A stretch of 64,000 nt of DNA from Candidatus Woesearchaeota archaeon (GTDB lineage: Archaea; Nanobdellota; Nanobdellia; Woesearchaeales; JABGUJ01), in the NCBI GenBank assembly GCA_018646625.1, contig JABGUJ010000002.1, forward strand, positions 100,843 to 164,842, read 5' to 3'. Positions 4,582 through 55,507 of this stretch are shown here, piece by piece. The notes under the pieces are model-generated. The model worked only from the letters and a program-made list of their open reading frames with translations, had not been told where the DNA came from and made no database searches. How positions within the stretch are numbered: position 1 is the stretch's first letter; each line of letters opens with the position of its first letter. Both the position numbers and the translations under genes were made by a program.

Positions 4582-6190
4582 TAAATGAGGTTAGTTTTAG
4601 ATTTGCACCTCTTATATCTCCAAAGTCATAACAATATAAAGGAATGTTATAGGAGTTTAGTAAAACTCCAAACTCTCTTATAATTTCATCAACTTCAATT
4701 GTACCAGAACGATAGATTCTTAGTCTATCTCCGCCATCAAATATCTGAAATATTTTCTCTTTAGCTTTAAGTGATTCTTTAAACGCAGGAAGATACATAT
4801 CTTCTAGACTTCTAACTTGTATCTTAGTAAATTTTTCTGAACTAAACTCTCGCTCATTAAACTCTTTGAACGCACAAGAAAACAATATTCTAAACCTAAT
4901 AGGCATACCACATGCAAGATAAATTGATTCTTGAGATCTACAGAAGGCATTAATTTCTTCAGAACAACTTTTAATCAAGTTAACAACAAGATCAGGATCT
5001 ACTTTCTCTTGTTTCCAACCATAGTTCCAGAATCTGATATAGTTTTTACTAAGATAGAAGAACTGCCTCTCAAAATCCTTATTCATGGATATAATGTTCT
5101 TGAAATATTCTTCACTCTTATTTCTCTGAAGAGAGTTTGCAAACAATAATGATTTAGCAACAGTTGTAACAAAAGGACGAAACTGATTCATACCAAGCTC
5201 TTTAAGAAACTTATCAACATCAATAGCGATAGTACTCTGAGAACAAGCTATACCTTTTGCCCTATCGCGATAACGCAATTCATAAGATGCCCATTCTTTA
5301 TCTTCAAAAGTATAAGGTCCTGCACGTCCAAGCATATATGGAGATTTATGAAGTTCAGTGTTTTGAATATACATTCTAATCTTTGAACGAGCAAACACTG
5401 CGATAACTTTTGAGAGAACTTTAGAGTTTTCTTGCAGATCTTTAAAATTCATTGCAAAAACGAAACTTATTTGGTCAATAGATATTCTTCTCGTCGACTC
5501 AAGATACTCAAGAACATTTATACTCTTAGGAGGTATTATATTCTTCATGTTAATTATGCAAGTTATTTCTTTTCCATAATCAACACATTCTGATTCAAGT
5601 TTATTGAAGAATGACAAGATATCCTCAGAAGATGAGTTCATTAAGAAAAATTCAAAATCATTCAAACCTACAACATCATTCACATTTGTAAAACAAAGCG
5701 ATATTGCCTGAAATAAATCATCCAGAGAACCATACGCACAACACTCAAGTAAAACTGCGTTAAGCCTATCGATCCAAGTTGCAGGCTCATACTTAAAACT
5801 AATACCTTTTCGTTCATAACCTTCAATGGGCATACCTGGAATAGAAGGTCTACTTATGATGAGTTTTTTTTTGTATTTTCCAATATGGACTTCTTCACCT
5901 TCGGCAATAGTGAGTGTAAAGTACTTTTCGCCCTTAACACCTTCTTTAGTTATACGAAGAACCTTTTCAGCTACAAGTTTGTTTAGATAATAGAGAGTTT
6001 TTCTATGAAGTTGCGCTTTGAGATGTTTAGCATTATTTATTCTATCATTGTCTTGTATGATATTATCAAAATCATCACGAATTTTTTGATATTCTTCAGG
6101 AAATATTGCTTTTACAATCTTAGTAGTAGATAACTCAGAAGAAGGACTTCCTTTAAACAAATTGAGTATGTCATACTCTGTTTTTCTCAT
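4574..6190 (-). CDS. Hypothetical protein (538 aa) with a possible N-terminal winged-helix domain
   Basis: Long ORF with consistent coding bias and no recognisable catalytic motif. Transcribed divergently from the Lrp regulator gene. Confidence 0.4.
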   Translation of the reverse strand: MRKTEYDILNLFKGSPSSELSTTKIVKAIFPEEYQKIRDDFDNIIQDNDRINNAKHLKAQLHRKTLYYLNKLVAEKVLRITKEGVKGEKYFTLTIAEGEEVHIGKYKKKLIISRPSIPGMPIEGYERKGISFKYEPATWIDRLNAVLLECCAYGSLDDLFQAISLCFTNVNDVVGLNDFEFFLMNSSSEDILSFFNKLESECVDYGKEITCIINMKNIIPPKSINVLEYLESTRRISIDQISFVFAMNFKDLQENSKVLSKVIAVFARSKIRMYIQNTELHKSPYMLGRAGPYTFEDKEWASYELRYRDRAKGIACSQSTIAIDVDKFLKELGMNQFRPFVTTVAKSLLFANSLQRNKSEEYFKNIISMNKDFERQFFYLSKNYIRFWNYGWKQEKVDPDLVVNLIKSCSEEINAFCRSQESIYLACGMPIRFRILFSCAFKEFNEREFSSEKFTKIQVRSLEDMYLPAFKESLKAKEKIFQIFDGGDRLRIYRSGTIEVDEIIREFGVLLNSYNIPLYCYDFGDIRGANLKLTSFIE

Positions 6191-7553: not shown

Positions 7554-9041
7554 GTGCCAGGCAAGGAGTTAGTCGATTATATAGTAAATGAGCTTAATTC
7601 TGGATATTCTGCACCTCAATTAAGACAATATTTGATTTCTAAAGGTTACAACATAAGAGATGTAGATCAAGCAATTAGAGCTGCAGAATCTTACCTTATC
7701 AGACCACCCACACAACAAGGCCAGGATGCACTTCAGGATGTTGTTCAGCACTACTTAGAACAAGGTCAAGATGTTAATCTAATAAGAAACAGATTACAAT
7801 CACAAGGATACAATTCAGTAGATATTGATAGCGCACTAGGAGTCAAACAAGAAACTAAGAGAAAAATAAACATAATGCCAATTGCAGTTATTGTTATGTT
7901 TATAGCATTCGTTTCATTTGGAGGGTTTGTTTTATTTAAAATCAAGGGGATTGAAGAACCTGATGTTAAACCATGGATGCAGTTAGATGTTGAATCAGAA
8001 TTACTTTCAAAACATCCAGAACCGGGAAAGAAAGCAATATTCACAGTAAAAGCAAGTAACTTAGGTACACTAAAAGGGTATGATATTAGATTTACATATT
8101 TGTTGACAGAAGTTAAGACAAGAAAAGTAATTCTATTTGAAGAAGAAGATAAAGCCATACAAACAACATTGAGTTTTGTGAAAGACTTCGATCTACCTAC
8201 ATATGTAAAACCAGGAAATTATTTATTTGAAGTTAAAGCTACTTATGTTAACACAACTGCAAAATCATCACAAGCATTCAGAATATATTCCGATTCTACA
8301 GAGCAGGATGAACCAGAGTGTACAGTTAATAGTGACTGCGAGAATGATGAGAAATGCGATAAAGGATTATGCATCCTTAGAGAAGATTTTGATTGTAGAG
8401 AAGATAGAGATTGTGAATTAGGGGAAGTGTGTAATGGTGGACAGTGCACAACAACCGAAGACCAACCAGAATGTTTCTTTAATAGTGATTGTGAAGATAA
8501 GGAAGAGTGTAAAAATGGATTGTGCACTTCAGTAATGCCGGATGGTGCGGAATGTTTAGTAAATAATGATTGCGGTACGAATCAAGTTTGTCAGAATCTT
8601 CAATGCATCTCAGTAGAGAACTTAGCTAATGTTTCATTAGAAGATATGACTGCAACCGATGTTAAGCTTTTAATTATAAAGTCTGCAGAAAACGACCCAA
8701 TAAAAGCGAAAGAGATTTGCGATCAATACAAGGGAGATTATATTGGTAATCTGTGCTTTATTTATCTATCGGAAGCCGCAAACAATCCAGAGTATTGTGA
8801 GTTTATTGAAGATGTAGACTCAAAAGAAAGATGCTTTGCTAGTTTCTTATATCACCATAACGACTTTACTGTGTGTGATCGATTAACCAAACCACAGAAC
8901 ATTAATTTTTGTGAAATGGCAAAGAGATTAAGTTTATTGAGTCAGTTTGGTAATTTATCAGGAGAAGTTCCTACTCAAGTTCTTGATTATCAGCAAGAAT
9001 CTGAAGAGGAAGAAGAACCTGTTGTTTATCAAGGAAACTGA
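7554..9041 (+). CDS. Membrane-anchored extracellular protein with tandem Cys-rich (C-x5-C...G-x-C) modules
   Basis: A cytoplasmic N-terminus is followed by a TM helix (IMPIAVIVMFIAFVSFGGFVLF). After it come five or more repeats of the type ECTVNSDCENDEKCDKGLC, FDCREDRDCELGEVCNGGQC, ECFFNSDCEDKEECKNGLC and ECLVNNDCGTNQVCQNLQC. Confidence 0.55.
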   Translation: MPGKELVDYIVNELNSGYSAPQLRQYLISKGYNIRDVDQAIRAAESYLIRPPTQQGQDALQDVVQHYLEQGQDVNLIRNRLQSQGYNSVDIDSALGVKQETKRKINIMPIAVIVMFIAFVSFGGFVLFKIKGIEEPDVKPWMQLDVESELLSKHPEPGKKAIFTVKASNLGTLKGYDIRFTYLLTEVKTRKVILFEEEDKAIQTTLSFVKDFDLPTYVKPGNYLFEVKATYVNTTAKSSQAFRIYSDSTEQDEPECTVNSDCENDEKCDKGLCILREDFDCREDRDCELGEVCNGGQCTTTEDQPECFFNSDCEDKEECKNGLCTSVMPDGAECLVNNDCGTNQVCQNLQCISVENLANVSLEDMTATDVKLLIIKSAENDPIKAKEICDQYKGDYIGNLCFIYLSEAANNPEYCEFIEDVDSKERCFASFLYHHNDFTVCDRLTKPQNINFCEMAKRLSLLSQFGNLSGEVPTQVLDYQQESEEEEEPVVYQGN

Positions 9042-9044
9042 ATT

Positions 9045-11564
9045 CTACGAGAAATAAGGCCTCGAATAATGAGCATATGCACCATAGTTCTCAAACTTGC
9101 CGCGCATATTTAACATATCGATTTCATTATCATTCTCAGGTCTTGGGAAATCTACTATTTTAATAATTAAACCATTCCTGTGTGTGACGAGTGAATTATA
9201 GCTAACATTCCAATATACACTCCTATTTATACCCGTGAAATAAACACCACCAACCTCAGCGTTCGGACCCACATGAGTGAAATTAGCAACATAATCCTGA
9301 ACTACTTCACAATCTGCATAAGCGCTATCACTCCCATTCTCAAAGAACCAGAGTTTAGTATCTTTAACACCATCGCAAATGTCAAGGGCCTCCGAGTCCA
9401 CACTCCCATTAATATGTAAACACCCACACACTTTTACTGCCGCACCATCCTCCATAACAGTATCCACTTTACAATTCTCAGGCACACCTGTACGTAAGGT
9501 TTCCTTTTCACGCTCACAAATATCCATCATTTCATCATCGCTGCCGCAATCACATCTTCTCGTAGCATCAATATAATATCCAGCTTCATCAACTAAACTC
9601 CCTTCAACCTTCCATAAACCTGGAGCAAGAGGTAAACTCAAAATTGGTTGATCATTACGAATAATTAACGAAGTTGCCAAACGATCATCATCAGTATATT
9701 CAGTTACTCGCTGAAACTTAATAGAAATTAATTCATCATCTGCAAGTGCACGTTTTCCAGAAAAGTTCAAAGCAGGAATTATATCAATATCAACAATTTC
9801 AACATTAACAATAGGCGACATCTCAACATATTGAGTAAATGCATCATCAGGATAATCAACATTTACTTTGACTCTGTTTTTCACATATCCTTCCTTTGAA
9901 AAGACCATAAAGGCTTCCCCCCTACACATAGGGAGATTAGTTGTAGTTTCGGCCAAATTAGTAACTAGATCAAGCTCCGTGTTCAAATCATCCCACTTAC
10001 ATGTAACATATCTCCCACAAGTAAATTGAACATCTGCATTAGAGATAGGAGCATTAGTGTATTTATCATACACCACAAAAGTTCTTTCAGGACCAATTCT
10101 TTGCTCTTCATTACAGATAAGAGAGTCTTTTGCTTTATCGGTCATTAATTCAGAATCTAGTTCTTCTAGAAACTCCTCTTCACCGGATAACTCCATTTCA
10201 GTTCGTATCTGCTCTTCAACTAGTTCGGTACCCATTTCAACATCTCCAGGATTCAGAGGAACTCTTCCTTGACCATTCAAATAATCAAACAGATTCAGGT
10301 TTCTCCTTAAGCTAACTTCGTGTGCAAAGTAAAATGAATACGAATCTCGTCCATCTTTGAATGGAATGTCTTCTAATATCACCCTTATAAGAACAGGATA
10401 AGATAGATCATAAAAAAATCTATATTTATAAGTTTCATCACCAGTTATTATATCAAAAAAATCAGGACCTTTAATTGTCTTAGGTACGAGTTTATCGTCA
10501 TCCGCAGGCCAAATATTTGAGTAAACAGGCCAATCCAAATAAATAAATTCCACATTAATGTGATCTAAGATGTCAACATCTTGAAATAAATCAAATAAAA
10601 ATGGTTTTAATAAACCAGGAGAGCCCGGGACATCAATCAACTCAGAGTCTCGTAATCCTTCAACTTGAAACATGTTAACAGACAGCATAAGTACATCTTT
10701 GATCATTTTCTTTGATTTTTCCAGTGACCAAGTAACTTTATCTTCCCCATTAACTGAATCTGCAGAAAACGGAGGTAATTTATCAGAATCTAAACCAGAA
10801 TACAGAACTAAGGCATGCATAGTTGCATCTTCTAGCGATTGTGTTGCAGTAAGAGACTGCGACAATGCAAATGCAACCCCAAATACATCCATGAAATTAA
10901 ATGGCAACTCAGAACTAAATCGATCTATCCGAGTAACAAGCTCACCATCCTTTCCCCATCTTACTTCGAGAGGATAAATGAGATCTAGGAACATGACACT
11001 TTCAGCATAGTCAAATGATATAAATCTTCCAGGCAGCTCAGTAACATTGAAGCCCTGCAATCCAAATGCTTTGTACTGATCTAAGCACTCAGTCATATGA
11101 TTAAGAATATATCCTCGTACTTGGTTATTTACAAGATCAATCTCAGGAATATTCTCATTCGTAATTGTCAATGAACCACTTTCACTAGGTTCGGGGACAT
11201 AATACCAGTAAGGAACGGCATTTCGTTCATCAAATAAAGTAACACCACTACTTTCAACCGGATTGTCTAGATCAAAATAAAATGATCTTCCAGACAATTC
11301 TTCATTTAATGGATCAAGATAACCTCCATGTAAACCTATGTAATCAAATGCCTCATGACTAACTTTCCGTAAACAATCTTCCACAGCCTGCTTCACAGGT
11401 CTAATTTCTAAAGGAATATCCTCCGCAGTTGAATCAGGTTTCAAAGACTCAATCTGAATCTCACGAATATATAACATAAGTCCGACTAATATCAAGATAA
11501 TAAATCCCACCAAGATGTAGATAGATATTTGAGATCTTTGCGATCTATTATCCATTCTTAACAC
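9045..11564 (-). CDS. Large N-terminally anchored extracellular protein (839 aa)
   Basis: N-terminal TM (ISIYILVGFIILILVGLMLYI), a long ectodomain and a Cys-rich C-terminal region. Overlaps the upstream gene by 17 nt, indicating an operon. Confidence 0.5.
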   Translation of the reverse strand: MLRMDNRSQRSQISIYILVGFIILILVGLMLYIREIQIESLKPDSTAEDIPLEIRPVKQAVEDCLRKVSHEAFDYIGLHGGYLDPLNEELSGRSFYFDLDNPVESSGVTLFDERNAVPYWYYVPEPSESGSLTITNENIPEIDLVNNQVRGYILNHMTECLDQYKAFGLQGFNVTELPGRFISFDYAESVMFLDLIYPLEVRWGKDGELVTRIDRFSSELPFNFMDVFGVAFALSQSLTATQSLEDATMHALVLYSGLDSDKLPPFSADSVNGEDKVTWSLEKSKKMIKDVLMLSVNMFQVEGLRDSELIDVPGSPGLLKPFLFDLFQDVDILDHINVEFIYLDWPVYSNIWPADDDKLVPKTIKGPDFFDIITGDETYKYRFFYDLSYPVLIRVILEDIPFKDGRDSYSFYFAHEVSLRRNLNLFDYLNGQGRVPLNPGDVEMGTELVEEQIRTEMELSGEEEFLEELDSELMTDKAKDSLICNEEQRIGPERTFVVYDKYTNAPISNADVQFTCGRYVTCKWDDLNTELDLVTNLAETTTNLPMCRGEAFMVFSKEGYVKNRVKVNVDYPDDAFTQYVEMSPIVNVEIVDIDIIPALNFSGKRALADDELISIKFQRVTEYTDDDRLATSLIIRNDQPILSLPLAPGLWKVEGSLVDEAGYYIDATRRCDCGSDDEMMDICEREKETLRTGVPENCKVDTVMEDGAAVKVCGCLHINGSVDSEALDICDGVKDTKLWFFENGSDSAYADCEVVQDYVANFTHVGPNAEVGGVYFTGINRSVYWNVSYNSLVTHRNGLIIKIVDFPRPENDNEIDMLNMRGKFENYGAYAHYSRPYFS

Positions 11565-12396: not shown

Positions 12397-13052
12397 ATTT
12401 CTTTCTCCACAACTTCAACAGACCACTCATGGTCTTGGTAATTCTTATCTTGATAAGTAACACTAAAGTTCACATATCTTTTATGATCTGTATGATTAAT
12501 ATAAAAAACATCAAATCCAGATGCACCTTCATAATTAGTAATGTAGTTTGTTGCAGACTGATCTTGTATTATATTTATGAGTTGAGGCGTAACACCTGAC
12601 TCGCCAATCAAATACAATTCAAAAGGAATTACAATATCTTCAACAGCACCCTCGCTATCAGGTAATTCAGTAGAATAAGGCGCCTCCACGTACCAACTAG
12701 TTTGATACATATATTGAGACATGTTATCGTCTTGATATATCAAAGTACGGTCAGCCTGTATTGCAACCGTTAATTCAGATAAATAAGATCTATGTGCAGC
12801 CGTTGCTGCACTGCTTGCAGGAATATTGGGTCCACCGGTTAGCAAACAAACAAACTTCTCAGTATCGGTAACATCGTACCAAGGCATAAGTATTGCATCC
12901 ATTGGCTGTCCAAGATAAACCATAGAATCAAAATAACTCGCATCCTCATCAGCTAAAGCCGAAAACGACAATACAAACAAAGCTATAAAAATTATAGAAC
13001 CCAGTCTGTGCATCGCACTAATCATCATACTCAACTCCGTTGCAATTTTCAC
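12393..13052 (-). CDS. Secreted protein (signal peptide)
   Basis: N-terminal signal LGSIIFIALFVLSFSALA. Overlaps the giant upstream gene. Confidence 0.45.
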   Translation of the reverse strand: MKIATELSMMISAMHRLGSIIFIALFVLSFSALADEDASYFDSMVYLGQPMDAILMPWYDVTDTEKFVCLLTGGPNIPASSAATAAHRSYLSELTVAIQADRTLIYQDDNMSQYMYQTSWYVEAPYSTELPDSEGAVEDIVIPFELYLIGESGVTPQLINIIQDQSATNYITNYEGASGFDVFYINHTDHKRYVNFSVTYQDKNYQDHEWSVEVVEKEI

Positions 13053-16000
13053 TCATTGTACCCATAATTTTATCCATATATTCTGAACCTTCCATAGGTG
13101 TAGATAGTTCACCGTAATCATACATAAGCAATGCAGCATATTTCGCATATCCGTCATAAGATGGAACAGTGATCCACTCAGTTAAAGCAGATCCTTTCAT
13201 ATTCTTCAACGCAGGCAATTCCATTATTTTCTGAGTAATCCACTGTAACACTCTAGAAGTTAGATAAGAAGGAGGGAAAAGAAGTTTTAAGGCAGCCGCG
13301 AGTATTGTTTGAATAATTAACCACACAGATGGCAAACCAATCTCAACAATCGCACCATGATAATACAAACACTCCCTTATAGATCTCATTTCTGTACAAA
13401 CATTAGCTGGAAGAGTTCCATATCGTCCAATGTCTTGAAGGCATTTGTATTCTTTACAAAGAATTTGTTTTCGTTTTCTTTCTGCAGCCAACTGACCAGG
13501 GTAACAGAAACAACCTTCCGCCACTTCCCGACTTTTGTACGGATTCATCTCAAGATTATCATCTAGAGATAAGCCTCCTGCAACCATTCCGGCCTGAGCC
13601 CCCGCCATACCTGCAGCTGCCACAGTTCCAGTAGCCGCACCAGCAGCCACACCGGCACCACCGGTCAAAGCAGCAGTTCCTAACATAGCATTGAATCCAG
13701 GTTCAATATTTGTACCTGCATAAGCATCTGATGTTTCAATCGCACCTTGAATTGCAGACGCAATCCCGTTCGAAATAAGACTATCAACAAGAGTATTAGT
13801 ACTAGCAAGTGTATTTACTATTTCATTTGCAGCTTCTTCGCCGACCCAACCGCCGAGATCCATACTATCAGCTACAGATTCAGTCAAATCATAAGTATCA
13901 GCTCCGGCCATTTGTAAACCCGCAGTTAAACTAGCCATTATACCCATTGCTTTAAAGAAACCTTCAGGTTTTGAAGCACCACTACCGTCTCCAATTGAAC
14001 ATAAATGGCAAGTATTTATCAAGCAAGTTGCCCTTGCCAACCAACCAGTAATGTGATACAACTCTTCTTGTTCCGTAGGTAAGTAATTCCAAAGATAGGA
14101 TGAAACTTTTAGTGCTGAAGTAGATACTTCGGTAAATATATCTAAAAGCCCACTCAATGCCGTACCAATAAAAGCACACTGAGATGTTTTAGGACATGCT
14201 TTTATTATTGGACTAAATATTATGAATGCAACAGTTGTTAATATTGTTACAATAGTAGTCATAAGAATTGCATATTGAAGATATTCGCAAGCATATCTTA
14301 TATATTCAGCCCAAATAATTATTTGATCAATCTTCTCATCAACGCCACGTAAATCTGATTTTACTCCATCAACAAGTTCACCAAACGCCTCATCAAAATA
14401 TCCAATAGGTAAATTAGCGAGCGGTGCAGTAAAGTTGACAGTTTCAAGCTCAATCTTTTCATAAAATACTAATCCATCACGAACAACAAAGCCAATGTTA
14501 CAACTTAGTTTTGGTTTTACAGGATTAAAACAACTAGAAGTATCCGTCTCAGAATCCTCACAAGGTGGTAGATCAGAACTATTGACTGCTTCAGCACCCA
14601 TTCCACCAAGCCTGAGCGATAGTATAGGCACATCTGCTTTCCCATTCAGAATCTGTGCTTCAGTTACTGGAAATTCACTATTAAAACAAGAAGTTGTACC
14701 TTTATGTAACTCAACATCCGTTAGAATACCTGAATGCATCAATGAGTGGATTTTTATATCAGTAGCTAAAACAGTTTCATATATTTTACAATTAGGATCC
14801 AAAGATATAGGCATTAACTCAACATAAAGAGGAAATGGCTTAACAGATGCAGCACGCCAATCTACAACACTTGGAGTAACACGGCCCTTATTCAAATATA
14901 CACAATTCGGCACACCAGTATTATTAATACCGCAAATAGTTACTACCTTACGAATTGAATCAAAATTTCCTGCAGCATCATAAGCAGTAAGTTCAATCTC
15001 GGCAGAAGGAACTGGAAATGAAACAATGTTAGACAGATTTACATTGCACTCATATAAGCCATCATAATGCTTATATGGGCGACAAACTCCAACAAATGGT
15101 TCATTAACATCAACAATTCTGTTATGCTCATCAATTGCTCCATTGATCTCGATCTTTGTTACAGGAGAAGTGTCTTCAACAAGAACTCTATAAGTTACAA
15201 CATCATTCGATGTAGGACAATCTCTAAATGAATTAATAGTATAATTGGTTCTTTTAATTACCGGAGGTTCGTTATCAAAAGTGACTCTAAATTGCTGGTT
15301 GCTTATTCTATTCTGCGCATCATCAAAAGAACTATGTAGTCTAATTGTAACCACATCACTTGAAACAATATCAGGGCGATTAACCCAGATTGGTTCCCAA
15401 ATACAACTCCAAGTTGTTGATCCATTTGTTGTTTTACAGCTGTTTGCTTTTGTTTTCTGATGCCCTACACGAATAGAAGACATGTCAAGATAAACATCAC
15501 CATTATTCAATCCAGCACCACTCTCTTCAAGAATTAATTCAAACTTATTTTCTTTACCACCAACAAAGTTTTGAACATATCCGCCTTCAATTACAGGAGA
15601 ATTAGAAAGAAACTTCTTGACAATTGGCTTACTAGAATCCGCTTGAAAATTAACTTCATGAGTTTTGGTTACATAATTACCAGCACCATCACCCACCTTT
15701 ATTTTTGCAATCCTGGTAGAAGACGTTGATACAATCATCGGAAACTGCCAGATACAAGTAGCAGTATTATCACCAGAGAGAGAACAACTTTGCGGTTCTA
15801 AAGATGCAAATCGAGCATGATCACTTGGTGGTAAACCATCTTGAATAAATGAAACAACATCAATGACAGAATCACCTAAATTCACATTAGAAATACTAAG
15901 ATCCGAATAACTAACAGTGAGTTTAGCATTATAAGAATTTCCAGGATTCACAAATAGTTCTTCACCCAACACACCAGCAGTTTCAAAAAGTATATCTTTT

Positions 16001-16719
16001 ATCACAGGTTCTAAGTTATCAAGAGTGACAGTTAATGATGAAGAATCCACATAATTATCTAGCTTGTCAGATACACTAAGAATCGCATCGCCTATAAGTT
16101 CACCAGGAAATGATTTCATATCAAAATATCCAGTAGTAGTACAAGAAGTTTGAGATTTAATTGTAGGGGTTGCAGACACAAATAAATCCCCATAAAATAA
16201 TGATATCTGATTTATTCCCGAACAATATCCATTAACTCTCGAAGTATCTGATACTCTAAAATTCAATCGTTTAGCAGACTCATCCCATGAAAAATCTTCA
16301 ACAAGTGGTGAAACGTCATCAATAGTAATCGAAGCAGAAGCCTGAGCAACTACAGAATAATCCTCATTTTTGTATATTACTTCAAGATTACCTGAAGGAA
16401 TCTTAAATTCTATTTCGCACTTATAACGATCACTTCCAAAAGGATTACAAGAATCGGCAGGATAGCCATTAAAGAGAACTCTGTTTTCATCTAAAGACTG
16501 CTCATTTGTCTTCACTAATGCAGCAACAGAAACTTCATCAGTTGGTTTAGCATAACCATTAACGCCATTCTCGCCAGAAATATGCACAATTTCAACAGCA
16601 TAATCCGCAGGAGGAGAAACAGGTTGAGCAAATGAACGAGCAGAAGCGAACGATAGAGATATCACAAGAAAACACATGAATATAGCTAAGTTTTGCTTGT
16701 ACACCCCTTTTAAGTACAT
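13018..16719 (-). CDS. Giant cell-surface protein (1233 aa): signal peptide, beta-rich ectodomain, C-terminal membrane segments and a Gly/Ala-rich stretch
   Basis: Signal peptide FLVISLSFASARSFAQP. Long Thr/Ser/Asn/Val-rich region typical of Ig-like beta domains. C-terminal hydrophobic helices and the GGAGVAAGAATGTVAAAGMAGAQAGMVAGG tract. Confidence 0.55.
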   Translation of the reverse strand: MYLKGVYKQNLAIFMCFLVISLSFASARSFAQPVSPPADYAVEIVHISGENGVNGYAKPTDEVSVAALVKTNEQSLDENRVLFNGYPADSCNPFGSDRYKCEIEFKIPSGNLEVIYKNEDYSVVAQASASITIDDVSPLVEDFSWDESAKRLNFRVSDTSRVNGYCSGINQISLFYGDLFVSATPTIKSQTSCTTTGYFDMKSFPGELIGDAILSVSDKLDNYVDSSSLTVTLDNLEPVIKDILFETAGVLGEELFVNPGNSYNAKLTVSYSDLSISNVNLGDSVIDVVSFIQDGLPPSDHARFASLEPQSCSLSGDNTATCIWQFPMIVSTSSTRIAKIKVGDGAGNYVTKTHEVNFQADSSKPIVKKFLSNSPVIEGGYVQNFVGGKENKFELILEESGAGLNNGDVYLDMSSIRVGHQKTKANSCKTTNGSTTWSCIWEPIWVNRPDIVSSDVVTIRLHSSFDDAQNRISNQQFRVTFDNEPPVIKRTNYTINSFRDCPTSNDVVTYRVLVEDTSPVTKIEINGAIDEHNRIVDVNEPFVGVCRPYKHYDGLYECNVNLSNIVSFPVPSAEIELTAYDAAGNFDSIRKVVTICGINNTGVPNCVYLNKGRVTPSVVDWRAASVKPFPLYVELMPISLDPNCKIYETVLATDIKIHSLMHSGILTDVELHKGTTSCFNSEFPVTEAQILNGKADVPILSLRLGGMGAEAVNSSDLPPCEDSETDTSSCFNPVKPKLSCNIGFVVRDGLVFYEKIELETVNFTAPLANLPIGYFDEAFGELVDGVKSDLRGVDEKIDQIIIWAEYIRYACEYLQYAILMTTIVTILTTVAFIIFSPIIKACPKTSQCAFIGTALSGLLDIFTEVSTSALKVSSYLWNYLPTEQEELYHITGWLARATCLINTCHLCSIGDGSGASKPEGFFKAMGIMASLTAGLQMAGADTYDLTESVADSMDLGGWVGEEAANEIVNTLASTNTLVDSLISNGIASAIQGAIETSDAYAGTNIEPGFNAMLGTAALTGGAGVAAGAATGTVAAAGMAGAQAGMVAGGLSLDDNLEMNPYKSREVAEGCFCYPGQLAAERKRKQILCKEYKCLQDIGRYGTLPANVCTEMRSIRECLYYHGAIVEIGLPSVWLIIQTILAAALKLLFPPSYLTSRVLQWITQKIMELPALKNMKGSALTEWITVPSYDGYAKYAALLMYDYGELSTPMEGSEYMDKIMGTMSENCNGVEYDD

Positions 16720-37716: not shown

Positions 37717-37842
37717 ATGGTACCAAAATTTTTAAAATTAGTAGATGATCCTTGTTTCGGTGAAGAGCACGAAGAAAGAGATCAATGTTCGTTCTGTTGG
37801 ATAAAAGAAGCATGTTTAGTGAGATTTAGAAACCGGAAGTGA
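37717..37842 (+). CDS. Candidate 41 aa Cys-containing small ORF
   Basis: My translation is MVPKFLKLVDDPCFGEEHEERDQCSFCWIKEACLVRFRNRK* (C-x10-C-x2-C-x5-C). It is below the track's size cutoff. Confidence 0.2.
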   Translation: MVPKFLKLVDDPCFGEEHEERDQCSFCWIKEACLVRFRNRK

Positions 37843-37854: not shown

Positions 37855-37885
37855 AGTAGTAATATATACAAACCTTTATATACTA
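37855..37885 (+). promoter_or_regulatory. Conserved ~31 nt promoter/operator element (copy 1), upstream of the LysM-M15 gene
   Basis: agtagtaatatatacaaacctttatatacta includes a TATA-like tttatata. It is 28/31 identical to copy 2 at 39935-39965. Confidence 0.55.
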
Positions 37886-37922
37886 TCTCCACACTACATT
37901 ATTACGTATTCTAAGAGTACAT

Positions 37923-39062
37923 TTGGAGGAAAGTAGAGTGTATCAACCAAGAAGGTCATTGTTCTATGCTTTAGCGGCAGCTTACTTATTATTAGCACCT
38001 GCAACGGCTTCTGCTCAACGATATCATAGAGTGAAAGGAGGCCAGAGCGTTAGCGCAATCGCAGAGAAAACAGGCGTACCCTTAGATGAAATTCTATCAT
38101 GCAATCCAAGCATAAGAGAAGATCCTCAGCATAGAATCTATGTGGGTCAGAAACTAAGATTGTATGAGACTTACAGAGTAAAGAAAGGAGATACTCTTTC
38201 AGAGATTGCAGAAAGCTATTGGACAACTGTTGAAGAGCTTATGTCTTATAATGGAATTAGAGATCAGAACAAGATTCATGTAAGACAAAAACTAAGAATA
38301 CCTTGTAGAGAACAACATGTTGTTGAAAGTGGCGAAAGTCTAGAAGAAATTGCAAAAAGAGAAGGACTTAGTGTTGAAGATCTACTAAAAAGAAATCCCG
38401 AACTAAAAAGAAATCCCGGTCTTATTTATCCAGGTCAAAGAATTTATGTTGATGAAAGAGAACCTGAACCGACAGCTGATGAGATGCGAAAAACTCGAGC
38501 TAAAGCAGAGACTAGAAAGAAGGGAAGAACAGTAAGATTTCAATCTGGATTAGAGTTAAGAGTAAGTTCGGATAAGCGATTAATTGGAAGAGGAAAACAC
38601 TTCTGGGATTCGGTCGGTAGCGGATTACCTTTACTTAAAGTTGAAGCAAGAGATTTGTATAGAGAAGTATCACCCCATTTCAATCTAGAAGAGTTTGCAA
38701 GAGTTGAACCTAATGAAGAAAGATTTGCAGATTCACGTTACACCTTTAGACATGGCGGGCACATGTATCATAGTTATGTTAGAATAGATAAGTTACTACT
38801 TAGAAAACTAGAGAGAGTTAGAGGAAGATATGGTGAACCTATAAAGATCGACTGCGCCTACAGACCATATAAACATAATATGAAAGTTACGTCAGCCAGG
38901 AAGAGTAGACATATTTCAGGACAAGCAGTTGATATAGTTGCACACAAACGTGGGAAATTGCGAAGACTACTTAGAAGAGAGTTTCGTTCTGGCGGAATAG
39001 GTGAAGGTCCAACTACAATTCATGTAGATGTACGTCCACAAAGAAAGCGTTGGGGATATTAG
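37923..39062 (+). CDS. Secreted peptidoglycan hydrolase: signal peptide + 3 LysM domains + C-terminal M15 (YcbK/MepK-like, DUF882) zinc peptidase domain
   Basis: Signal peptide LFYALAAAYLLLAPATASAQ. LysM repeats: YHRVKGGQSVSAIAEKTGVPLDEILSCNP, YRVKKGDTLSEIAESYWTTVEELMSYNGI and HVVESGESLEEIAKREGLSVEDLLKRNPEL. C-terminal IDCAYRPYKHNMKVTSARKSRHISGQAVDI...GGIGEGPTTIHVDV matches the SGYRxxxxN...SxHxxGxAxD...HVD zinc-binding pattern of peptidase M15A/DUF882. Confidence 0.7.
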   Translation: MEESRVYQPRRSLFYALAAAYLLLAPATASAQRYHRVKGGQSVSAIAEKTGVPLDEILSCNPSIREDPQHRIYVGQKLRLYETYRVKKGDTLSEIAESYWTTVEELMSYNGIRDQNKIHVRQKLRIPCREQHVVESGESLEEIAKREGLSVEDLLKRNPELKRNPGLIYPGQRIYVDEREPEPTADEMRKTRAKAETRKKGRTVRFQSGLELRVSSDKRLIGRGKHFWDSVGSGLPLLKVEARDLYREVSPHFNLEEFARVEPNEERFADSRYTFRHGGHMYHSYVRIDKLLLRKLERVRGRYGEPIKIDCAYRPYKHNMKVTSARKSRHISGQAVDIVAHKRGKLRRLLRREFRSGGIGEGPTTIHVDVRPQRKRWGY

Positions 39063-39097
39063 TTAAACTTAAATAGTTTCTAAAAGTAATTGATAAT

Positions 39098-39631
39098 ATG
39101 AAACATACTTTTTGGTATATTGACCATTTGATGGAAGTGTTAAGTGAACGAGTCTTAGATTTTACTGATGGAAAAGCTTGGGGACCAGGTGAAGATAGAT
39201 CAAGAGGAACACTACGATCTGATTCTGAAAAAAGAAAAGCAAGAAAACTGCTTGACAAGATAAAAGAGTATGATAAAAAGCTTAGAAAACTAATTGATAA
39301 TCATAGAAACGAAGAACACTTGAGAACTCTCCACAACTGTCATGTTGATAGCATACCCAACTGGGCAGACAGAGTTAAGGCAATGTTTAAGAAATTTGAT
39401 GCGCTTCTAAAAGTACTAGAAGAAGACATTCCAAAACTAGAAGCCGCAATTGAATCGGAGCACCACATGTGGGGTGACAGACATCAGGATATGGTTATGG
39501 GTTTTCTTATGGCGGGGTTTCATGATGCTGAGCAAGACATGGAAGAGTTTCGTAAGGCATCCATATTCGAAAGAAAGCACTTGCAAGAAATTCTTGGCGA
39601 TTTAAAAGATCTTGAAGAAGTTCTAGAGTAG
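39098..39631 (+). CDS. Hypothetical cytoplasmic alpha-helical protein (177 aa)
   Basis: Charged helical protein with consistent coding bias and no recognisable motif. Confidence 0.35.
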   Translation: MKHTFWYIDHLMEVLSERVLDFTDGKAWGPGEDRSRGTLRSDSEKRKARKLLDKIKEYDKKLRKLIDNHRNEEHLRTLHNCHVDSIPNWADRVKAMFKKFDALLKVLEEDIPKLEAAIESEHHMWGDRHQDMVMGFLMAGFHDAEQDMEEFRKASIFERKHLQEILGDLKDLEEVLE

Positions 39632-39680
39632 ATGATCACCACACAAATAATTATAAACCTTACCAACTAATATCAATCAG

Positions 39681-39932
39681 ATGTATAAAAAAATAAAAGA
39701 ATATTTTGAGAAAAAATATACTCTCAGATATTTTGAAATTAAGAGTATGATTATCATCACATTGCTTTCTACGCTGTTTTTAGTAAACGTTTGGCCAAGA
39801 TTCAGAAATGATGTGCTTGAATTCCCGTGGTATGGATATGTTATACTGATAGCTATCCTTGCGATCATATGGATAATATGGAGAAATCATGCATCAAATA
39901 AGCAAGTCTCCAAGGAACAACATCGTCACTAA
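39681..39932 (+). CDS. Small two-TM membrane protein
   Basis: Hydrophobic segments MIIITLLSTLFLVNVW and YVILIAILAIIWIIW. Confidence 0.35.
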   Translation: MYKKIKEYFEKKYTLRYFEIKSMIIITLLSTLFLVNVWPRFRNDVLEFPWYGYVILIAILAIIWIIWRNHASNKQVSKEQHRH

Positions 39933-39934
39933 CA

Positions 39935-39965
39935 AGTAGTAATATATACATACATTTATATACTA
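39935..39965 (+). promoter_or_regulatory. Conserved ~31 nt promoter/operator element (copy 2), upstream of the SPOR/beta-lactamase-fold gene
   Basis: agtagtaatatatacatacatttatatacta, ~54 nt upstream of the ATG at 40019. Confidence 0.55.
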
Positions 39966-40018
39966 GTTCTGCCTTATACAATATCTAATTCTAGGCATAA
40001 TGCCTCAGAAATACAAAA

Positions 40019-41626
40019 ATGAGCGATAGAGACCTTGATGGAATAGTAGGAGCAGATCTTAGTAGAAGAGATTTTCTCAAATTTGGAAGAAATCTAACAG
40101 GTGGTGCAGTAGCTGCAGATGTAGCTATGAAAACAGGTATTGCTACAGCTGTTTTAAAATGGCTTTTTTCACCTAGAGAAGCTCATGCTCAAACAGGTTC
40201 TGGAAGATATGATGTATCTTACATTTGGCATCCTAAATTAGATGCAGCTCTAGATTATATGGATCAAGTAGAAAAAGTTCTTGGAAAAACATTAGGTAAA
40301 GAGTTAAGAGTTGTAAGAGGTAGGAGTGGAAACTTCGGTATAGTTTATGATAGAGATGCTTCTACAAGAGAAAAAGCAGAGAAGACTGCAAGAAGTCATA
40401 CTAACACGCTAAAAAAGGCAGACCTAGATGATGCGGGAGTTGTTAAAGATGAAGGTTATGGTTTAGTTTACAACATAAGTTACGGAAGAGGTCCAAATTT
40501 AGGTGCTTTGAAAAAAGCTTTTGATATTGTATACAAACAACTAGGTAGCGGGCTAGGTAAAAGATTAGTTATTGAAGAAAAAGATAATGGAGATTATGCA
40601 TTAGTTTACAAAAGATATGGTGATAAAGAATTAGGTAGAGTTTCTGCTGCAAGACATCACGATGTTCTGAAAAGAACGGATCTTAGAAAAGTTCTAGGTA
40701 TGCGTAGAGGTGCAGAGCTTGCTTCAGTTATTGAAGAAAGAAATGATAATGCAATATTTGGTGAAGGTAGTCATTTAGATGATGTCGTAGAAACACCAAA
40801 ACCTGAAAAGATTGTCAAACCCAGAAAACCTAAACCAGAAATAACCACAGATTTAGAGGCAGCAATCGAAAGACATGTTGGTCAACTAAGAAGAAGAGGA
40901 CTTATCTCTGGCGACGAGAGAACAGCATGGTCTGTGTATGATTTCGATACAGGTGATAAGGTAGTTAGCATAAATGAAGATGTGCCTATGCAAGCTGCAA
41001 GTATGATTAAACCATTTATAGCATTAGCATATTTCCACGAAGTAAAGCAGGGAAGAAAAGTTTATGGTCCCAAATCAAAAAGAAATATGCAAAGAATGAT
41101 TCAAAAAAGTAGCAACAGCGCTACTAACTGGTTCATTAAAACACTAGGAGGACCATCAAAGGTTCAAGAAATATTAAGAAGGAATTATAGCGAAATCTGC
41201 AAACAAGTTAGAATTAGAGAATATATTCCATCCGGCGGAAGAACATACAGAAACTTAGCTTCAGCTCACGATTATAGTAGATTATTATATTCTTTATGGA
41301 AAGGTCAGTTACCAAGTTCTAGAGAACTAAGAAGAGTTATGGCTTTACCAGGAAGAGATAGAATTTATAACGGAGTTCCAGAAATACCGAACGGAACTTT
41401 AGTTTACAACAAAACTGGAACTACTGCAAGATGTGTTGGTGACTTTGGTATTTTGTATGCTAAAGACAAAAGAGGTAAAAGACATGCATACACAATGGTT
41501 GGAATTGTAGATAAGCCAAGAAGAACAAGTCATTATGGTAGTTGGGCATCAAGAAGAGCTAGCGCAATAAGAAGCGTCTCTGGAGAAGTCTATAAACATA
41601 TGAAAAGGCGCCACAATTTAGTGTAG
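40019..41626 (+). CDS. Tat-secreted protein: 2 SPOR-like repeats + serine beta-lactamase/DD-peptidase (class A-like) domain
   Basis: Twin-arginine motif SRRDFLKFG. Two ~70 aa repeats (…LRVVRGRSGNFGIVYDRDASTREKAEKTARSH…; …KRLVIEEKDNGDYALVYKRYGDKELGRVSAARHH…) resemble SPOR domains. The C-terminal domain has SxxK (ASMIKP), SxN (SSNSATN) and KTG (NKTGTT) active-site motifs in the correct order and spacing. Confidence 0.6.
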   Translation: MSDRDLDGIVGADLSRRDFLKFGRNLTGGAVAADVAMKTGIATAVLKWLFSPREAHAQTGSGRYDVSYIWHPKLDAALDYMDQVEKVLGKTLGKELRVVRGRSGNFGIVYDRDASTREKAEKTARSHTNTLKKADLDDAGVVKDEGYGLVYNISYGRGPNLGALKKAFDIVYKQLGSGLGKRLVIEEKDNGDYALVYKRYGDKELGRVSAARHHDVLKRTDLRKVLGMRRGAELASVIEERNDNAIFGEGSHLDDVVETPKPEKIVKPRKPKPEITTDLEAAIERHVGQLRRRGLISGDERTAWSVYDFDTGDKVVSINEDVPMQAASMIKPFIALAYFHEVKQGRKVYGPKSKRNMQRMIQKSSNSATNWFIKTLGGPSKVQEILRRNYSEICKQVRIREYIPSGGRTYRNLASAHDYSRLLYSLWKGQLPSSRELRRVMALPGRDRIYNGVPEIPNGTLVYNKTGTTARCVGDFGILYAKDKRGKRHAYTMVGIVDKPRRTSHYGSWASRRASAIRSVSGEVYKHMKRRHNLV

Positions 41627-49364: not shown

Positions 49365-50531
49365 CTAATTTCCTACAGATTGCTTAAGCACATCCACTTT
49401 GTCAGTCGCTTCCCAAGTAAAGTCAGGATCGTCTCTTCCAAAGTGACCAAATGCTGCAGTTTTTTTGTAGATCGGTCTTTTAAGTTTCAGATGAGAAATT
49501 ATATCCGCAGGTCTTAGTGGAAAATTATCTCTAACTAATTGTTCAATCTTTTCTTCAGGAATTTTATTAGTGCCAAAAGTATTAACTAAAATACTAACAG
49601 GTTCCGCAACACCAATACAATATGCAAGTTGTACTTCACATCTCTCTGCAATTTCTGCAGCAACAATGTTTTTTGCAATATATCTTGAAATGTATGCACC
49701 ACTTCTGTCAACTTTAGATGGATCTTTACCAGAAAAGCAGCCACCACCATGAGCACCATGTCCACCATATGTGTCTACAATAATTTTTCGCCCAGTAAGT
49801 CCAGCATCAGCAACAGGACCGCCTAAAACAAATTTACCAGTCCCATTAATGAACAATCTTGTTTCATCATCAAGATAATCTCCGCAAACAGGTTTGATAA
49901 CTTTTTCTTTTATCTCTGCTCGAAGTTGTTCAAGATCTGCATCTTCGTCATGCTGTGCAGCAATGACAACAGTATGTGCTCTGACAGGTTTACCATCTTC
50001 ATATTCAACAGTCACTTGACTTTTTGCGTCAGGTCGAAGCTTTTGTATCTCTTTAGTTCTTCGAACGTCATCATATTTAGCCATCAACTTGTGCGCCAAA
50101 TCAATTGGTAAAGGCATCAAGTTCTTTGTTTCATTTGTTGCATACCCGAACATTAAACCTTGGTCTCCTGCACCTTGTTCTTTAAAGTCCCCTTCACCCT
50201 CTGTAACTCCTTGACTAATATCAGGACTCTGCTCAGATAAAGCTACGAGCACTCCACAAGTATTACCATCAAATCCATAATGTGGATTATCAAAACCAAT
50301 TTCTTTTATTGTTTCTCTCGTTACATTTTGAATATCAACATAAGTAGATGTTGTTAATTCTCCACCTACAACTACAAATCCAGTTTTAGTAAAACACTCA
50401 ACCGCAACTCTAGCATCAGGATCTTCTTTAAACACGGCATCAAGAATTGCATCGCTGATCTTATCACACATTTTATCAGGATGTCCTGGACTTACACTTT
50501 CACTACTAAACAAATATTTTCCTTTTTTCAT
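49365..50531 (-). CDS. metK: S-adenosylmethionine synthetase, bacterial/eukaryotic type (MetK)
   Basis: Hallmark [17 protein letters not shown] and [19 protein letters not shown] motifs of the bacterial-type enzyme, not the archaeal-type fold. Confidence 0.9.
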
Positions 50532-54034: not shown

Positions 54035-54256
54035 ATGGCTACTACGACTATTCAAATTAGCAAGAATTTACTCGAAGAGTTAAAGTCTCGTAAAATGTAT
54101 GATAAAGAAAGTTATGAGGATATAATACGAGATTTACTGGAGGATTCTATGGAACTATCTAAGGAGACTCTCAATAATATAAAGAAATCCGAAGCAGATA
54201 TCAAAGCTGGAAAGATTAAGACTTTAGCAGAAGTTGAGGCAAGACTGAAAAGATGA
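54035..54256 (+). CDS. relB: Type II antitoxin (RelB/RHH-like)
   Basis: Small acidic protein directly upstream of RelE-like toxin, overlapping it by 4 nt. The start is at the internal Met MATTTIQISKNLLEELK. Confidence 0.5.
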   Translation: MATTTIQISKNLLEELKSRKMYDKESYEDIIRDLLEDSMELSKETLNNIKKSEADIKAGKIKTLAEVEARLKR

Positions 54257-54513
54257 GCTATAAAGTGATCTTTTCAGATCTGGCAGATAAACAGCTCAAT
54301 AAGCTTTCTTCAGATGTTCAGAGAAGAATAATTTCCACCTTGAAAAGATGTCGAATCAGGCCCCATACACACGTGAAGAAATTAGTTGGCTCAGAATATT
54401 ATAGATTGAGAGTTGGAGATTATAGGGTGATTATGAATATAGTTGATAATAGACTGGTTATTCATGTAATAGAAATGGGTCATAGGAAGAACATTTACAA
54501 AAAAGCAGCGTAG
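54253..54513 (+). CDS. relE: RelE/ParE-family type II toxin
   Basis: YRLRVGDYRVIMNIVDNRLVIHVIEMGHRKNIY matches the RelE/ParE C-terminal core. Confidence 0.75.
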   Translation: MSYKVIFSDLADKQLNKLSSDVQRRIISTLKRCRIRPHTHVKKLVGSEYYRLRVGDYRVIMNIVDNRLVIHVIEMGHRKNIYKKAA

Positions 54514-54562
54514 ATTCTGTTTAAGATATATTTAAATAATACTTCTAAGACAATTGTGTTAT

Positions 54563-54655
54563 GGGCCTATAGCATAGCCTGGATAGTGCGTCCGGCTTCG
54601 GAAGACTTATGTCTGTAGATACCGGTTGACGGGGGTTCGAATCCTCCTAGGCTCA
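54563..54655 (+). tRNA. tRNA-Arg(TCG) with a 19 nt intron at the canonical 37/38 position
   Basis: Acceptor gggccta/taggctc, D stem gcat/gtgc, anticodon stem tccgg/ccggt with loop ctTCGg|[aagacttatgtctgtagat]|a, variable tgac, T arm ggggg-ttcgaat-cctcc. An Arg anticodon is the most parsimonious reading; Pro(CGG) is the alternative. Confidence 0.55.
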
Positions 54656-55507
54656 TCCAATTCTTTTAATTCTGTTGATAGAAGTTCTTATTCTAAAGAT
54701 GATGAAAATAAACAGAGTTTTGATACATACTTTTACTTCTCAGAGACCGAAGAATTCCTTGAATGGATTAAGTTGAAGGTAGGTTCTGAACATTTTATCC
54801 ACATGAAGTGTTATTTTATGAAACATCTTGCAGGTAAGAAGTTCAAAGGACCATTAGAGTTGTATAAGTATATTTCAGAACAGAAAGGCATCAATAATCT
54901 AGTCAAAGCAGCAAGAGGTTATTTGAACTATTGTGAAGCCACAGATAAACTTTCAGCTGAGACTATCGACAAATATAGAAAGATACTGAAACTTAAGAGA
55001 ACTAAGATAGACTATCATGTTCCAGATGATAAAGAGATCGTTAAGAATTATAATCTGATTAAAGGTAACAAAAACCTTGAGTTGGTTTATTTGGTCCTAG
55101 CTTGCTCAGGTCTTAGGTATATAGAAGTTCTTCGCTTTCTGAAGAACTATGATAAGACCAAGTTTGTTGATCACGGAACCTTTGTCTCGTATAATATATC
55201 CGAGATTCGTGGTTCGAAAAGTGTTAACAATCTCTACCTACCCCGGTTTGTTTATGATAAACTAAACCATGTAGACAATACTTATAATTCTCTTAGACAA
55301 AGATTCAAAGAGAAAGGATGTACATTTACTTTGAAATACTTACGTAAATGGAATTACAATTTCTTAATCTACAACGGAGTTCCTGAGTCTGTAGCAGATT
55401 TTATTCAAGGAAGATCAAGTAATTCAGTTAGTGCTAATCATTATTTAGCTAAGAGTCAGCAGGCTAATCATTGGTATGGGATGATTACTCAAAAATTAAT
55501 ATTATAG
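54626..55507 (+). mobile_element. int: Tyrosine recombinase/integrase abutting the tRNA-Arg 3' end (true start uncertain, probably 54660-54803)
   Basis: C-terminal catalytic region LACSGLRYIEVLRF (Arg) ... LRKWNYNFL ... GRSSNSVSANHYLA (R/H...Y nucleophile region). The reading frame runs into the tRNA 3' end, as in pNOB8-type tRNA-targeting archaeal integrases. Confidence 0.6.

Follow-up and report, generated by a model that had tools for sequence, protein, structure and literature searches.

Why would an archaeon carry, directly behind its RNA polymerase and ribosomal protein genes, two genes whose predicted products join wall-binding modules to enzymes for cutting peptidoglycan? The question is raised by a 64,000-nucleotide (nt) stretch of DNA from Candidatus Woesearchaeota archaeon (assembly GCA_018646625.1, contig JABGUJ010000002.1, positions 100,843 to 164,842), referred to here as the window, in which gene A and gene B (Table 1) each follow a copy of a 31-nt element. 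For most DPANN archaea neither host nor lifestyle is known, and it is debated whether some live on bacteria; genomes offer few clues, of which secreted enzymes specific for murein are one. We read the products of gene A and gene B as two horizontally acquired, exported murein peptidases, which have a promoter copy each and most likely act extracellularly on bacterial peptidoglycan. We give this reading a probability of roughly 0.6. A preliminary description of the locus had proposed wall-binding modules and murein-active catalytic folds in both proteins, and the domain searches, catalytic motifs, and fold comparisons agree with it.

Gene A joins three LysM domains to an M15_3 zinc peptidase domain

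The product of gene A matches the LysM family (PF01476) in three stretches with 121.1 bits against a gathering cut-off of 20.9 (E = 1.7e-35), and LysM proteins of the PDB are matched with E-values down to 7.5e-15. The C-terminal domain matches Peptidase_M15_3 with 54.3 bits (cut-off 23.2, E = 1.6e-14), and a weaker DUF882/M15_2 match overlaps it. With both Pfam families above their cut-offs and the zinc ligands alignable, the preliminary assignment of three LysM domains and an M15A/YcbK-type peptidase holds. The start is probably not TTG 37923 but GTG 37938, which sits 8 nt after GGAGG and is the start used in public gene calls.

In PHROG, the last 130 residues match the endolysin family phrog_894 (E = 4.6e-19). 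Remote matches to the C-terminal part also come from 236 phage records that bear the annotation peptidase M15 or endolysin (tblastn, 29–35% identity). We aligned gene A with three phage M15 peptidases. HF..EF, an R, S-x-H-x6-D, and H-x-D-x-R are invariant in this alignment; the gene A residues R, S-R-H-ISGQAV-D, and I-H-V-D-V-R occupy such invariant sites, and gene A has a 19-residue insertion relative to the three phage proteins. The ligand histidine and aspartate also align to SRH...D of the Streptomyces albus Zn DD-peptidase 1LBU. The MepK equivalog (NCBIfam NF053624) gives gene A 23.2 bits, below its cut-off of 185; gene A is related to MepK yet is not MepK.

No full-length relative beyond gene A's own cluster was found in a collection of 5.8 billion proteins, where the remaining matches cover the LysM part only. 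The C-terminal domain alone gave no match through the word index of the protein collection, and a scan of viral contigs for gene A gave nothing. Gene A is thus an orphan in its architecture, although the parts from which it is assembled are common.

At the N-terminus (MYQPRRSLFYALAAAYLLLAPATASA↓Q), a short n-region with charged residues precedes a hydrophobic core of 16 residues and an AxA site, as expected from the Sec signal proposed earlier. The signal is Sec-type and not of the twin-arginine translocation (Tat) type, because the RR is replaced by GR in a sister strain (L095, JGI metagenome) that shares 95% DNA identity with the locus.

Gene B joins a tandem module to a class A-fold, putative serine peptidase domain

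The Pfam family Beta-lactamase2 matches the C-terminal 240 residues of the gene B product with 83.5 bits (cut-off 22, E = 1.7e-23). Its motifs S328-x-x-K331, S364-x-N366, and K465-T-G467 are invariant in 42 homologues and align to TEM-1, which confirms the serine fold with SxxK, SxN, and KTG that had been noticed at first. The model of the whole protein has a predicted local distance difference test score (pLDDT) of 86 and a predicted template modelling score (pTM) of 0.81, and its C-terminal domain superposes on class A enzymes. Foldseek places LRA-5 and the penicillin-binding protein PBP-A at ranks 1 and 5 with probability 1.00. GES-5 and TEM-1 variants interleave with them at near-identical E-values (~4e-12 to 1e-11), so that Foldseek alone cannot separate a PBP-A-like protein from a lactamase. 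A sequence profile of 42 family members gives 1.1e-10 for PBP-A, 2.5e-7 for LRA-5, and 3e-4 or worse for true beta-lactamases.

We then inspected the positions that mark the lactamases. In an hhalign alignment to TEM-1, E166 pairs with the variable Q396, N170 with R400, and E171-A-I-P of TEM with the invariant E401-Y-I-P of gene B, and four residues are deleted before the omega loop of gene B. The phmmer alignments to LRA-5 and PBP-A place position 166 on I399 or I403. The NCBIfam model bla_class_A gives gene B 39.8 bits against a cut-off of 200. LRA-5 becomes active as a lactamase only with V166E (plus Y69Q) (PMC12777564), and PBP-A is a DD-carboxy/endopeptidase that damages the Escherichia coli sacculus when expressed in the periplasm of E. 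coli (PMC11189452). Since Glu166 and Asn170 are not conserved, PBP-A and LRA-5 are nearest, and the activities of these two are known, the predicted product of gene B is best read as a penicillin-binding DD-peptidase and not as a resistance enzyme.

Residues ~62–240 consist of two mutually homologous units (hhalign probability 98.9%, E = 2e-17, 35% identity), each of which is beta-alpha-beta-beta-alpha-beta in the AlphaFold model of the tandem module (pLDDT 95). SPOR (PF05036) is not matched in gene B by Pfam at E ≤ 0.1, a profile of the module family finds no chain among the PDB sequences at E ≤ 10, and Foldseek gives only generic tandem ferredoxin/ACT-like matches with E ≥ 1e-3, among which SPOR is not singled out. 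Hence, of the two SPOR-like repeats in the preliminary description, the internal duplication stands, the fold is a predicted resemblance, and a match to the SPOR hidden Markov model (HMM) is lacking. For the modelled units, "SPOR-like fold" appears a fair term if taken as resemblance of fold only; their identity as SPOR domains is unsupported by sequence.

Upstream of the modules, gene B carries SRRDFLK, a long and weakly hydrophobic h-region (mean hydropathy ~1), and AHA↓Q, in keeping with the Tat signal assigned at the outset. The twin arginine is kept in all archaeal and high-G+C "Eisenbacteria" homologues.

Distribution and likely origin of the gene B family

Full-length relatives of gene B at 40–53% identity number 1,225 among the scored candidates, and a genome scan gave at least 523 species-level relatives, almost all bacterial. 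Their taxonomic make-up was taken from the best 80 of the 523. These are almost all Desulfobulbales, including the cultured Desulfopila, Desulfosediminicola, and Desulfogranum; the others are six Woesearchaeota or unclassified archaeal metagenome-assembled genomes and a high-G+C bacterial group (Eisenbacteria/"bacterium"). The contig of one member of the latter group is bacterial, as it encodes a sigma-54 activator and a Por secretion tail. The signal type tracks the clade: in a comparison of loci L007, L009, L014, L050, L059, L065, L008, and L010–L013 with the Desulfobulbales loci, archaeal and high-G+C members have RR and Desulfobulbales members have Sec-type signals. In a midpoint-rooted neighbour-joining tree, gene B groups with the other Woesearchaeota, and the archaeal and the Tat-bearing high-G+C sequences lie outside the Desulfobulbales clade. 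JGI annotates the homologues as "beta-lactamase class A". Gene B belongs to an uncharacterised family at the boundary of penicillin-binding proteins and beta-lactamases, which is widespread in bacteria and routinely mis-annotated under that label.

A bacterial or phage origin of the two genes is the parsimonious view, because the relatives of gene B are almost all bacterial and the catalytic domain of gene A resembles phage endolysins. The case for a bacterial origin is built on the substrate and on where the gene B family has its diversity. The horizontal acquisition proposed earlier is therefore upheld as to its likely source; the direction of transfer is left unsettled by the neighbour-joining tree.

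A duplicated element precedes both genes

The copies of the element are identical at 29 of 31 positions (28 in the first count) and have the consensus AGTAGTAATATATACA[A/T]AC[C/A]TTTATATACTA; the number of such 31-nt pairs expected in shuffled sequence is 0. Their similarity reaches beyond the 31-mer, with GTCAC ~10 nt upstream and ATTCTARG ~30 nt downstream in the 5' leader. The box TTTATATA fits the archaeal (TBP/TFB) TATA box TTTAWATA and has a plausible distance from both start codons. Both copies are kept in the sister strain, where copy 1 has one change. The blocks AGTAGTAATATATAC and TTTATATACTA are unchanged there, and only the 5 bases between them vary. The element is plausibly a duplicated promoter plus leader, which would give gene A and gene B similar regulation. 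The co-regulation suggested in the preliminary description is thus a plausible reading of the near-equal spacing between box and start codon and of the similarity past the 31-mer.

There is no third copy in the 64-kb window; a candidate before the downstream receiver gene was rejected for its poor alignment. Outside this lineage the element was absent from 96 fetched loci, and one JGI metagenome contig, that of the sister strain, has it. Homologues of gene B elsewhere have differing gene contexts, and the other Woesearchaeota copies lack the 31-nt element.

Gene A and gene B are not consecutive as first described, since open reading frames (ORFs) of 177 and 83 amino acids (aa) separate them. 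The 177-aa one, orf177, has 32 representative homologues in unrelated contexts and no Pfam, NCBIfam, or PHROG assignment; both facts leave it unsupported as a part of a wall-enzyme module. The family matches of orf83 are all sub-threshold. Its role as a holin was not adopted, because the sole match in that direction, Phage_holin_2, has E = 0.026 and is below threshold.

The locus is archaeal and both genes are maintained

Gene A lies directly after an archaeal rpoB/A–L30e–NusA–S12–S7 block, which agrees with the rpo-S12-S7 operon recognised upstream in the preliminary description, and NCBI labels its product as a Candidatus Woesearchaeota archaeon protein. The exact gene B protein is encoded on the 843-kb contig JABGRW010000006.1 of GCA_018648045.1, beside rpo and ribosomal genes. 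The order S7, gene A, gene B, and receiver recurs in independent NCBI, ENA (two), and JGI assemblies, and the sister strain keeps the junctions S7–element–gene A and element–gene B. Misassembly and contamination are rejected on account of these shared junctions and of the archaeal informational genes on both sides on the 843-kb contig. The G+C content of the window is flat (0.33–0.39), and neither gene A (0.39) nor gene B (0.37) deviates from it.

Compared with the sister strain, gene A shows a ratio of nonsynonymous to synonymous substitution rates (dN/dS) of 0.09 and gene B one of 0.20; the values for S7, S12, and rpoA'' are 0.00–0.06. The dS of gene A is 0.43, above the 0.11–0.20 of its neighbours. 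The low dN/dS values indicate purifying selection on both genes, which are hence maintained as coding genes.

Proposed action on bacterial peptidoglycan

The gene A protein would be exported by Sec and docked on glycan strands by its three LysM domains, and its M15A-type domain would cut stem peptides or cross-links, like phage M15 endolysins, MepK, and the Streptomyces Zn DD-peptidase. The gene B protein would be exported through Tat, probably in a folded state, and docked by its two SPOR-like modules; its PBP-A-like serine site would trim or cleave D-Ala-containing peptides, as a DD-carboxypeptidase or DD-endopeptidase. Both enzymes together may loosen the sacculus of a bacterial partner, of prey, or of debris, through which the reduced-genome archaeon could reach a cell surface or peptides. 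Domain content, catalytic motifs, fold, internal repeat, export motifs, promoter duplication, purifying selection, and the spread of homologues come directly from the data; enzymatic specificity, export routes, bacterial murein as substrate, co-regulation, and ecological role are read from them.

Several points weigh against this reading. The murein activity of the two products is a prediction from sequences and models. LysM may also bind chitin or other polymers of N-acetylglucosamine (GlcNAc), according to a survey of archaeal hydrolases (PMC12352652). For export of the gene B protein, the Tat model TIGR01409 gives 13.5 against a cut-off of 16.7, and no Tat component is found among the annotated genes in ~66 kb around the locus, no genome-wide Tat search having been made. 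All alignments tried put the invariant E401 only a few residues away from position Glu166, which keeps some room for a deacylating role that this residue may have. Lastly, the idea of a conserved gene A–gene B operon is rejected, because a LysM-M15 gene is near the gene B homologue at 0 of 80 other loci, and the same count of zero applies to orf177 and orf83. As the pairing is not conserved, the notion of a module rests on proximity and a shared promoter in one lineage.

A bolder form of the proposal makes the two enzymes a co-regulated "wall-breaching" module of an episymbiotic or predatory Woesearchaeon against bacteria, linked to Desulfobulbales as donor and possibly as host or prey, with the cassette of the orf177 family in an accessory or regulatory part. 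We regard it as improbable. Were it true, it would point to relatives of sulfate-reducing or cable bacteria as the donor and possibly the host or prey. Aside from this, a gene B family common to Woesearchaeota and Desulfobulbales could serve as a lead for finding partners.

Alternative readings

The same enzymes could have a nutritional role, in which free peptidoglycan fragments or necromass are turned into peptides and D-Ala for uptake and living cells are not attacked. The reduced genome is of a scavenging type, and genes for SNF-family transporters, a U32 peptidase, and polyamine metabolism lie near the locus. Among the genes of the window there is neither a pore-forming toxin nor a lytic transglycosylase, and DPANN archaea have been proposed to recycle cell components (PMC9723730). 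However, three LysM domains and two SPOR-like modules favour polymeric sacculi over soluble fragments, and peptidases alone free little from intact murein. We consider the nutritional role somewhat unlikely; it and the attack on bacterial walls are not mutually exclusive.

A second alternative concerns the element. Its copies might not speak for shared regulation but be, in the main, recombination scars or boundaries that date from an insertion of gene A and the cassette upstream of gene B. They form direct repeats around a segment of 2.08 kb. In the sister strain, orf177 and orf83 are replaced by two minus-strand ORFs of 147 aa and 159 aa (L095 6273–7342, corresponding to 39065–39934 of the window), the latter being a distant homologue of orf177 with 28% identity; orf83 is absent. 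The replaced DNA runs from 2 nt after the stop codon of gene A, and base 1 of copy 2 is precisely where the two strains become homologous again. The spacer is therefore a strain-variable cassette with its right edge at the element, and this edge keeps a boundary role of the repeat in play. The orphan architecture of gene A and the element-free contexts of the other Woesearchaeota homologues of gene B also fit an insertion. On the other hand, the locus has no integrase or transposase, both copies are conserved between the strains, and each places a TATA box equally far from a start codon, with similarity into the 5' leader (ATTCTARG), as for a duplicated promoter. The scar and promoter readings can both hold, as the promoter could have been copied in an insertion. 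As the primary explanation of the repeats we judge the scar unlikely, and keep the duplicated promoter.

Remodelling of the archaeon's own envelope, that is, of a murein- or pseudomurein-like polymer or a LysM-bound GlcNAc glycan, would agree with the purifying selection on both genes. The Desulfobulbales homologues of gene B, being single-copy, Sec-exported, and in ordinary chromosomal contexts, fit housekeeping wall enzymes in their own cells. Yet the ~66 kb around the locus showed no gene for wall synthesis, and full-length relatives of gene A are lacking in all other genomes, which is unlike a housekeeping enzyme. To our knowledge, and by established chemistry, pseudomurein peptides contain no D-amino acids on which DD-peptidases could act. 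The pseudomurein-making classes do not include Woesearchaeota and, in the survey, hold only two of the archaeal hydrolase homologues (PMC12352652). Pseudomurein remodelling is disfavoured for the last two reasons, and own-envelope remodelling as a whole is very unlikely.

That gene B is a beta-lactamase or a beta-lactam sensor gained as a resistance determinant, a resistance role that the preliminary description had also considered and that the Beta-lactamase2 match, the SxxK, SxN, and KTG motifs, and the JGI label would allow, is extremely improbable, given the lack of a conserved Glu166/Asn170, a score far under the NCBIfam class A cut-off, closest structures (PBP-A and LRA-5) that are inactive as lactamases without an engineered Glu166, the fusion to wall-binding-type modules, and the absence, as far as we know, of a beta-lactam target in archaea.

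Neighbouring genes and other features of the window

Table 1. Features of the gene A–gene B locus, in window coordinates.
Feature	Position	Strand	Remarks
MetRS, IleRS, NOG1, Alba, S17e	outer flanks of the locus		
Split rpoB, rpoA', rpoA'', L7Ae/L30e-family protein, NusA-KH, S12, S7	upstream flank of gene A		archaeal informational genes
Element copy 1, AGTAGTAATATATACAAACCTTTATATACTA	37855..37885	+	TATA-like box TTTATATA at 37874-37881, 56 nt before gene A GTG
Gene A, 374 aa	37938..39062	+	start GTG 37938; 379 aa if TTG 37923
Sec-type signal peptide of gene A	~37938-38015	+	
Three LysM domains of gene A	~38022-38162, 38172-38303, 38319-38450	+	Pfam
Charged linker of gene A	between LysM region and M15 domain		
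Peptidase_M15_3 (M15A-type zinc peptidase) domain of gene A	~38667-39059	+	ligands H325, D332, H362(-x-D364), 374-aa numbering
orf177, 177 aa	39098..39631	+	helical, no signal peptide, small uncharacterised family
orf83, 83 aa	39681..39932	+	two predicted transmembrane helices, GC 0.31
Element copy 2, AGTAGTAATATATACATACATTTATATACTA	39935..39965	+	box TTTATATA at 39954-39961, 57 nt before gene B ATG
Gene B, 535 aa	40019..41626	+	ATG start
Twin-arginine signal of gene B	40019-40189	+	SRRDFLK at residues 15-21, AHA↓Q at ~residue 57
Tandem beta-alpha-beta-beta-alpha-beta (SPOR-like fold) modules of gene B	~40202-40456, 40457-40738	+	
Lys/Pro-rich linker of gene B	between tandem modules and C-terminal domain		
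Class A beta-lactamase-fold (PBP-A-like) domain of gene B	~40901-41623	+	S328xxK331, S364xN366, K465TG467
Stand-alone CheY-like receiver, 119 aa	41716..42075	+	ATG 41716 behind GGGGGAGG; 125 aa if GTG 41698
Diphthamide-synthesis protein, DUF192, deoxyhypusine synthase	downstream flank of gene B/receiver		

A stand-alone receiver domain does follow gene B, as the preliminary description had it. We treat the receiver as merely adjacent and draw no tie to the two enzymes. In the closest bacterial relatives of gene B, a gene with a response-regulator domain lies divergently just upstream of the homologue (L010/L011 5274–5651, L087 8713–9702, all on the minus strand). These genes may echo the receiver downstream of gene B, and the resemblance may be a coincidence.

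Between S7 and copy 1 of the element lies a 41-aa Cys-rich ORF (MVPKFLKLVDDPCFGEEHEERDQCSFCWIKEACLVRFRNRK; 37717–37842, plus strand), which is uncalled in public annotations and the region of which is 95% conserved in the sister strain. Farther away, a tRNA-Glu gene of 98 nt (54562–54659), probably intron-containing, has a ParE-toxin gene upstream (~54253–54513) and is followed by a Phage_integr_3 integrase gene (~54818–55507) and then by several ORFs without Pfam match; the region 54253–55507 may be an integrated element. Four large proteins have no or only faint Pfam matches, namely those of 1233 aa (13018–16719), 839 aa (9045–11564), and 538 aa (4574–6190) on the minus strand and of 495 aa (7554–9041) on the plus strand. 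They might be proteins of the surface or of interaction, of a kind typical of DPANN archaea. At 49365–50531 (minus strand), a bacterial/eukaryotic-type S-adenosylmethionine synthetase (PF00438/02772/02773) is encoded beside arginase, ornithine/arginine decarboxylase, and deoxyhypusine synthase; it is likely another inter-domain transfer.

Comparison with known systems

Modular and often Sec- or Tat-secreted peptidoglycan hydrolases occur in ~5% of archaeal genomes, according to a 2025 survey (Strock et al., 2025, PLoS Biol, PMC12352652). The survey reports them as prominent in Nanoarchaeota and patchy in distribution, reads them as anti-bacterial weapons, and describes two haloarchaeal examples that were shown to kill bacteria. 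Among the entries for Woesearchaeales in its S2 table are LysM+Peptidase_M15 (Sec), LysM+SLT, and SPOR+SLT (Tat), so that secreted modular peptidoglycan hydrolases of this order are already catalogued. Gene A and gene B share with the surveyed hydrolases a secreted design with Sec or Tat signals, wall-binding and murein-cleaving domains, patchy distribution, inferred bacterial origin, and occurrence in Woesearchaeota (GTDB Nanoarchaeota). Under the survey's definition (a catalytic and a wall-binding Pfam domain plus a signal), gene A belongs to this set with its three LysM domains, Peptidase_M15_3, and Sec-type signal. Gene B belongs to it only if the SPOR-like fold is accepted, and lies outside the reach of the survey because Beta-lactamase2 (PF13354) is absent from the survey's domain list and the SPOR HMM misses it. 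Gene A differs from the surveyed hydrolases in its Peptidase_M15_3 subfamily, there being no archaeal LysM+Peptidase_M15_3 entry in the part of the table that was searched, and in lacking full-length relatives beyond its own cluster. The survey does not describe a pair of such genes behind duplicated promoters. What is new lies in the detail: an M15_3 variant of orphan architecture, an archaeal PBP-A-like peptidase with a tandem SPOR-like module, a duplicated promoter, and a variable cassette.

At the level of single proteins, the active-site motifs of gene A are shared with M15A enzymes (Vibrio phage enzymes, phiR1-37 gp084, microvirus peptidases, 1LBU, and MepK). Gene A differs from them in that identity is 29–38% at most, in its fusion to three LysM domains, and in its 19-residue insertion, which stands where the phage M15 enzymes have a CxxC-type segment. 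PBP-A (Tll2115 of Thermosynechococcus elongatus) and the metagenomic "pre-beta-lactamase" LRA-5 have, like gene B, a class A fold with SxxK, SxN, and KTG and without Glu166. Both are among the best sequence and structure matches of gene B, at an identity of only ~20%. The helical region between SxxK and SxN is shorter in gene B (36 versus 60 residues), and so is the omega loop; the N-terminal tandem module and the Tat signal of gene B are absent from PBP-A and LRA-5. SPOR domains (RlpA, CwlC, DamX, FtsN) are likewise beta-alpha-beta-beta-alpha-beta modules of ~75–85 residues fused to a murein enzyme, whereas the gene B module is N-terminal and in tandem, lacks a match to the SPOR HMM or to PDB sequences, and is not paired with SPOR by Foldseek. 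The bacterial Peptidase_S11+SPOR DD-carboxypeptidases, which also appear in the S2 table (PMC12352652), are an analogue of gene B in joining a serine DD-peptidase to SPOR.

A parallel in purpose is found in the large murein-like lytic transglycosylase proteins of Woese- and Pacearchaeota, proposed as means of attaching to bacteria or attacking them (Castelle et al., 2021, PMC8204110; Vigneron et al., 2022, PMC9723730). They come from the same lineage, and extracellular binding or degradation of bacterial walls is proposed for them as for gene A and gene B. The transglycosylases cut the glycan backbone (GH23), whereas the gene A and gene B products are predicted to act on the peptide part. The locus thus adds a putative peptide-cutting pair, one enzyme of the zinc M15A type and one serine enzyme of the PBP-A-like type, beside the glycan-cutting transglycosylases already reported.

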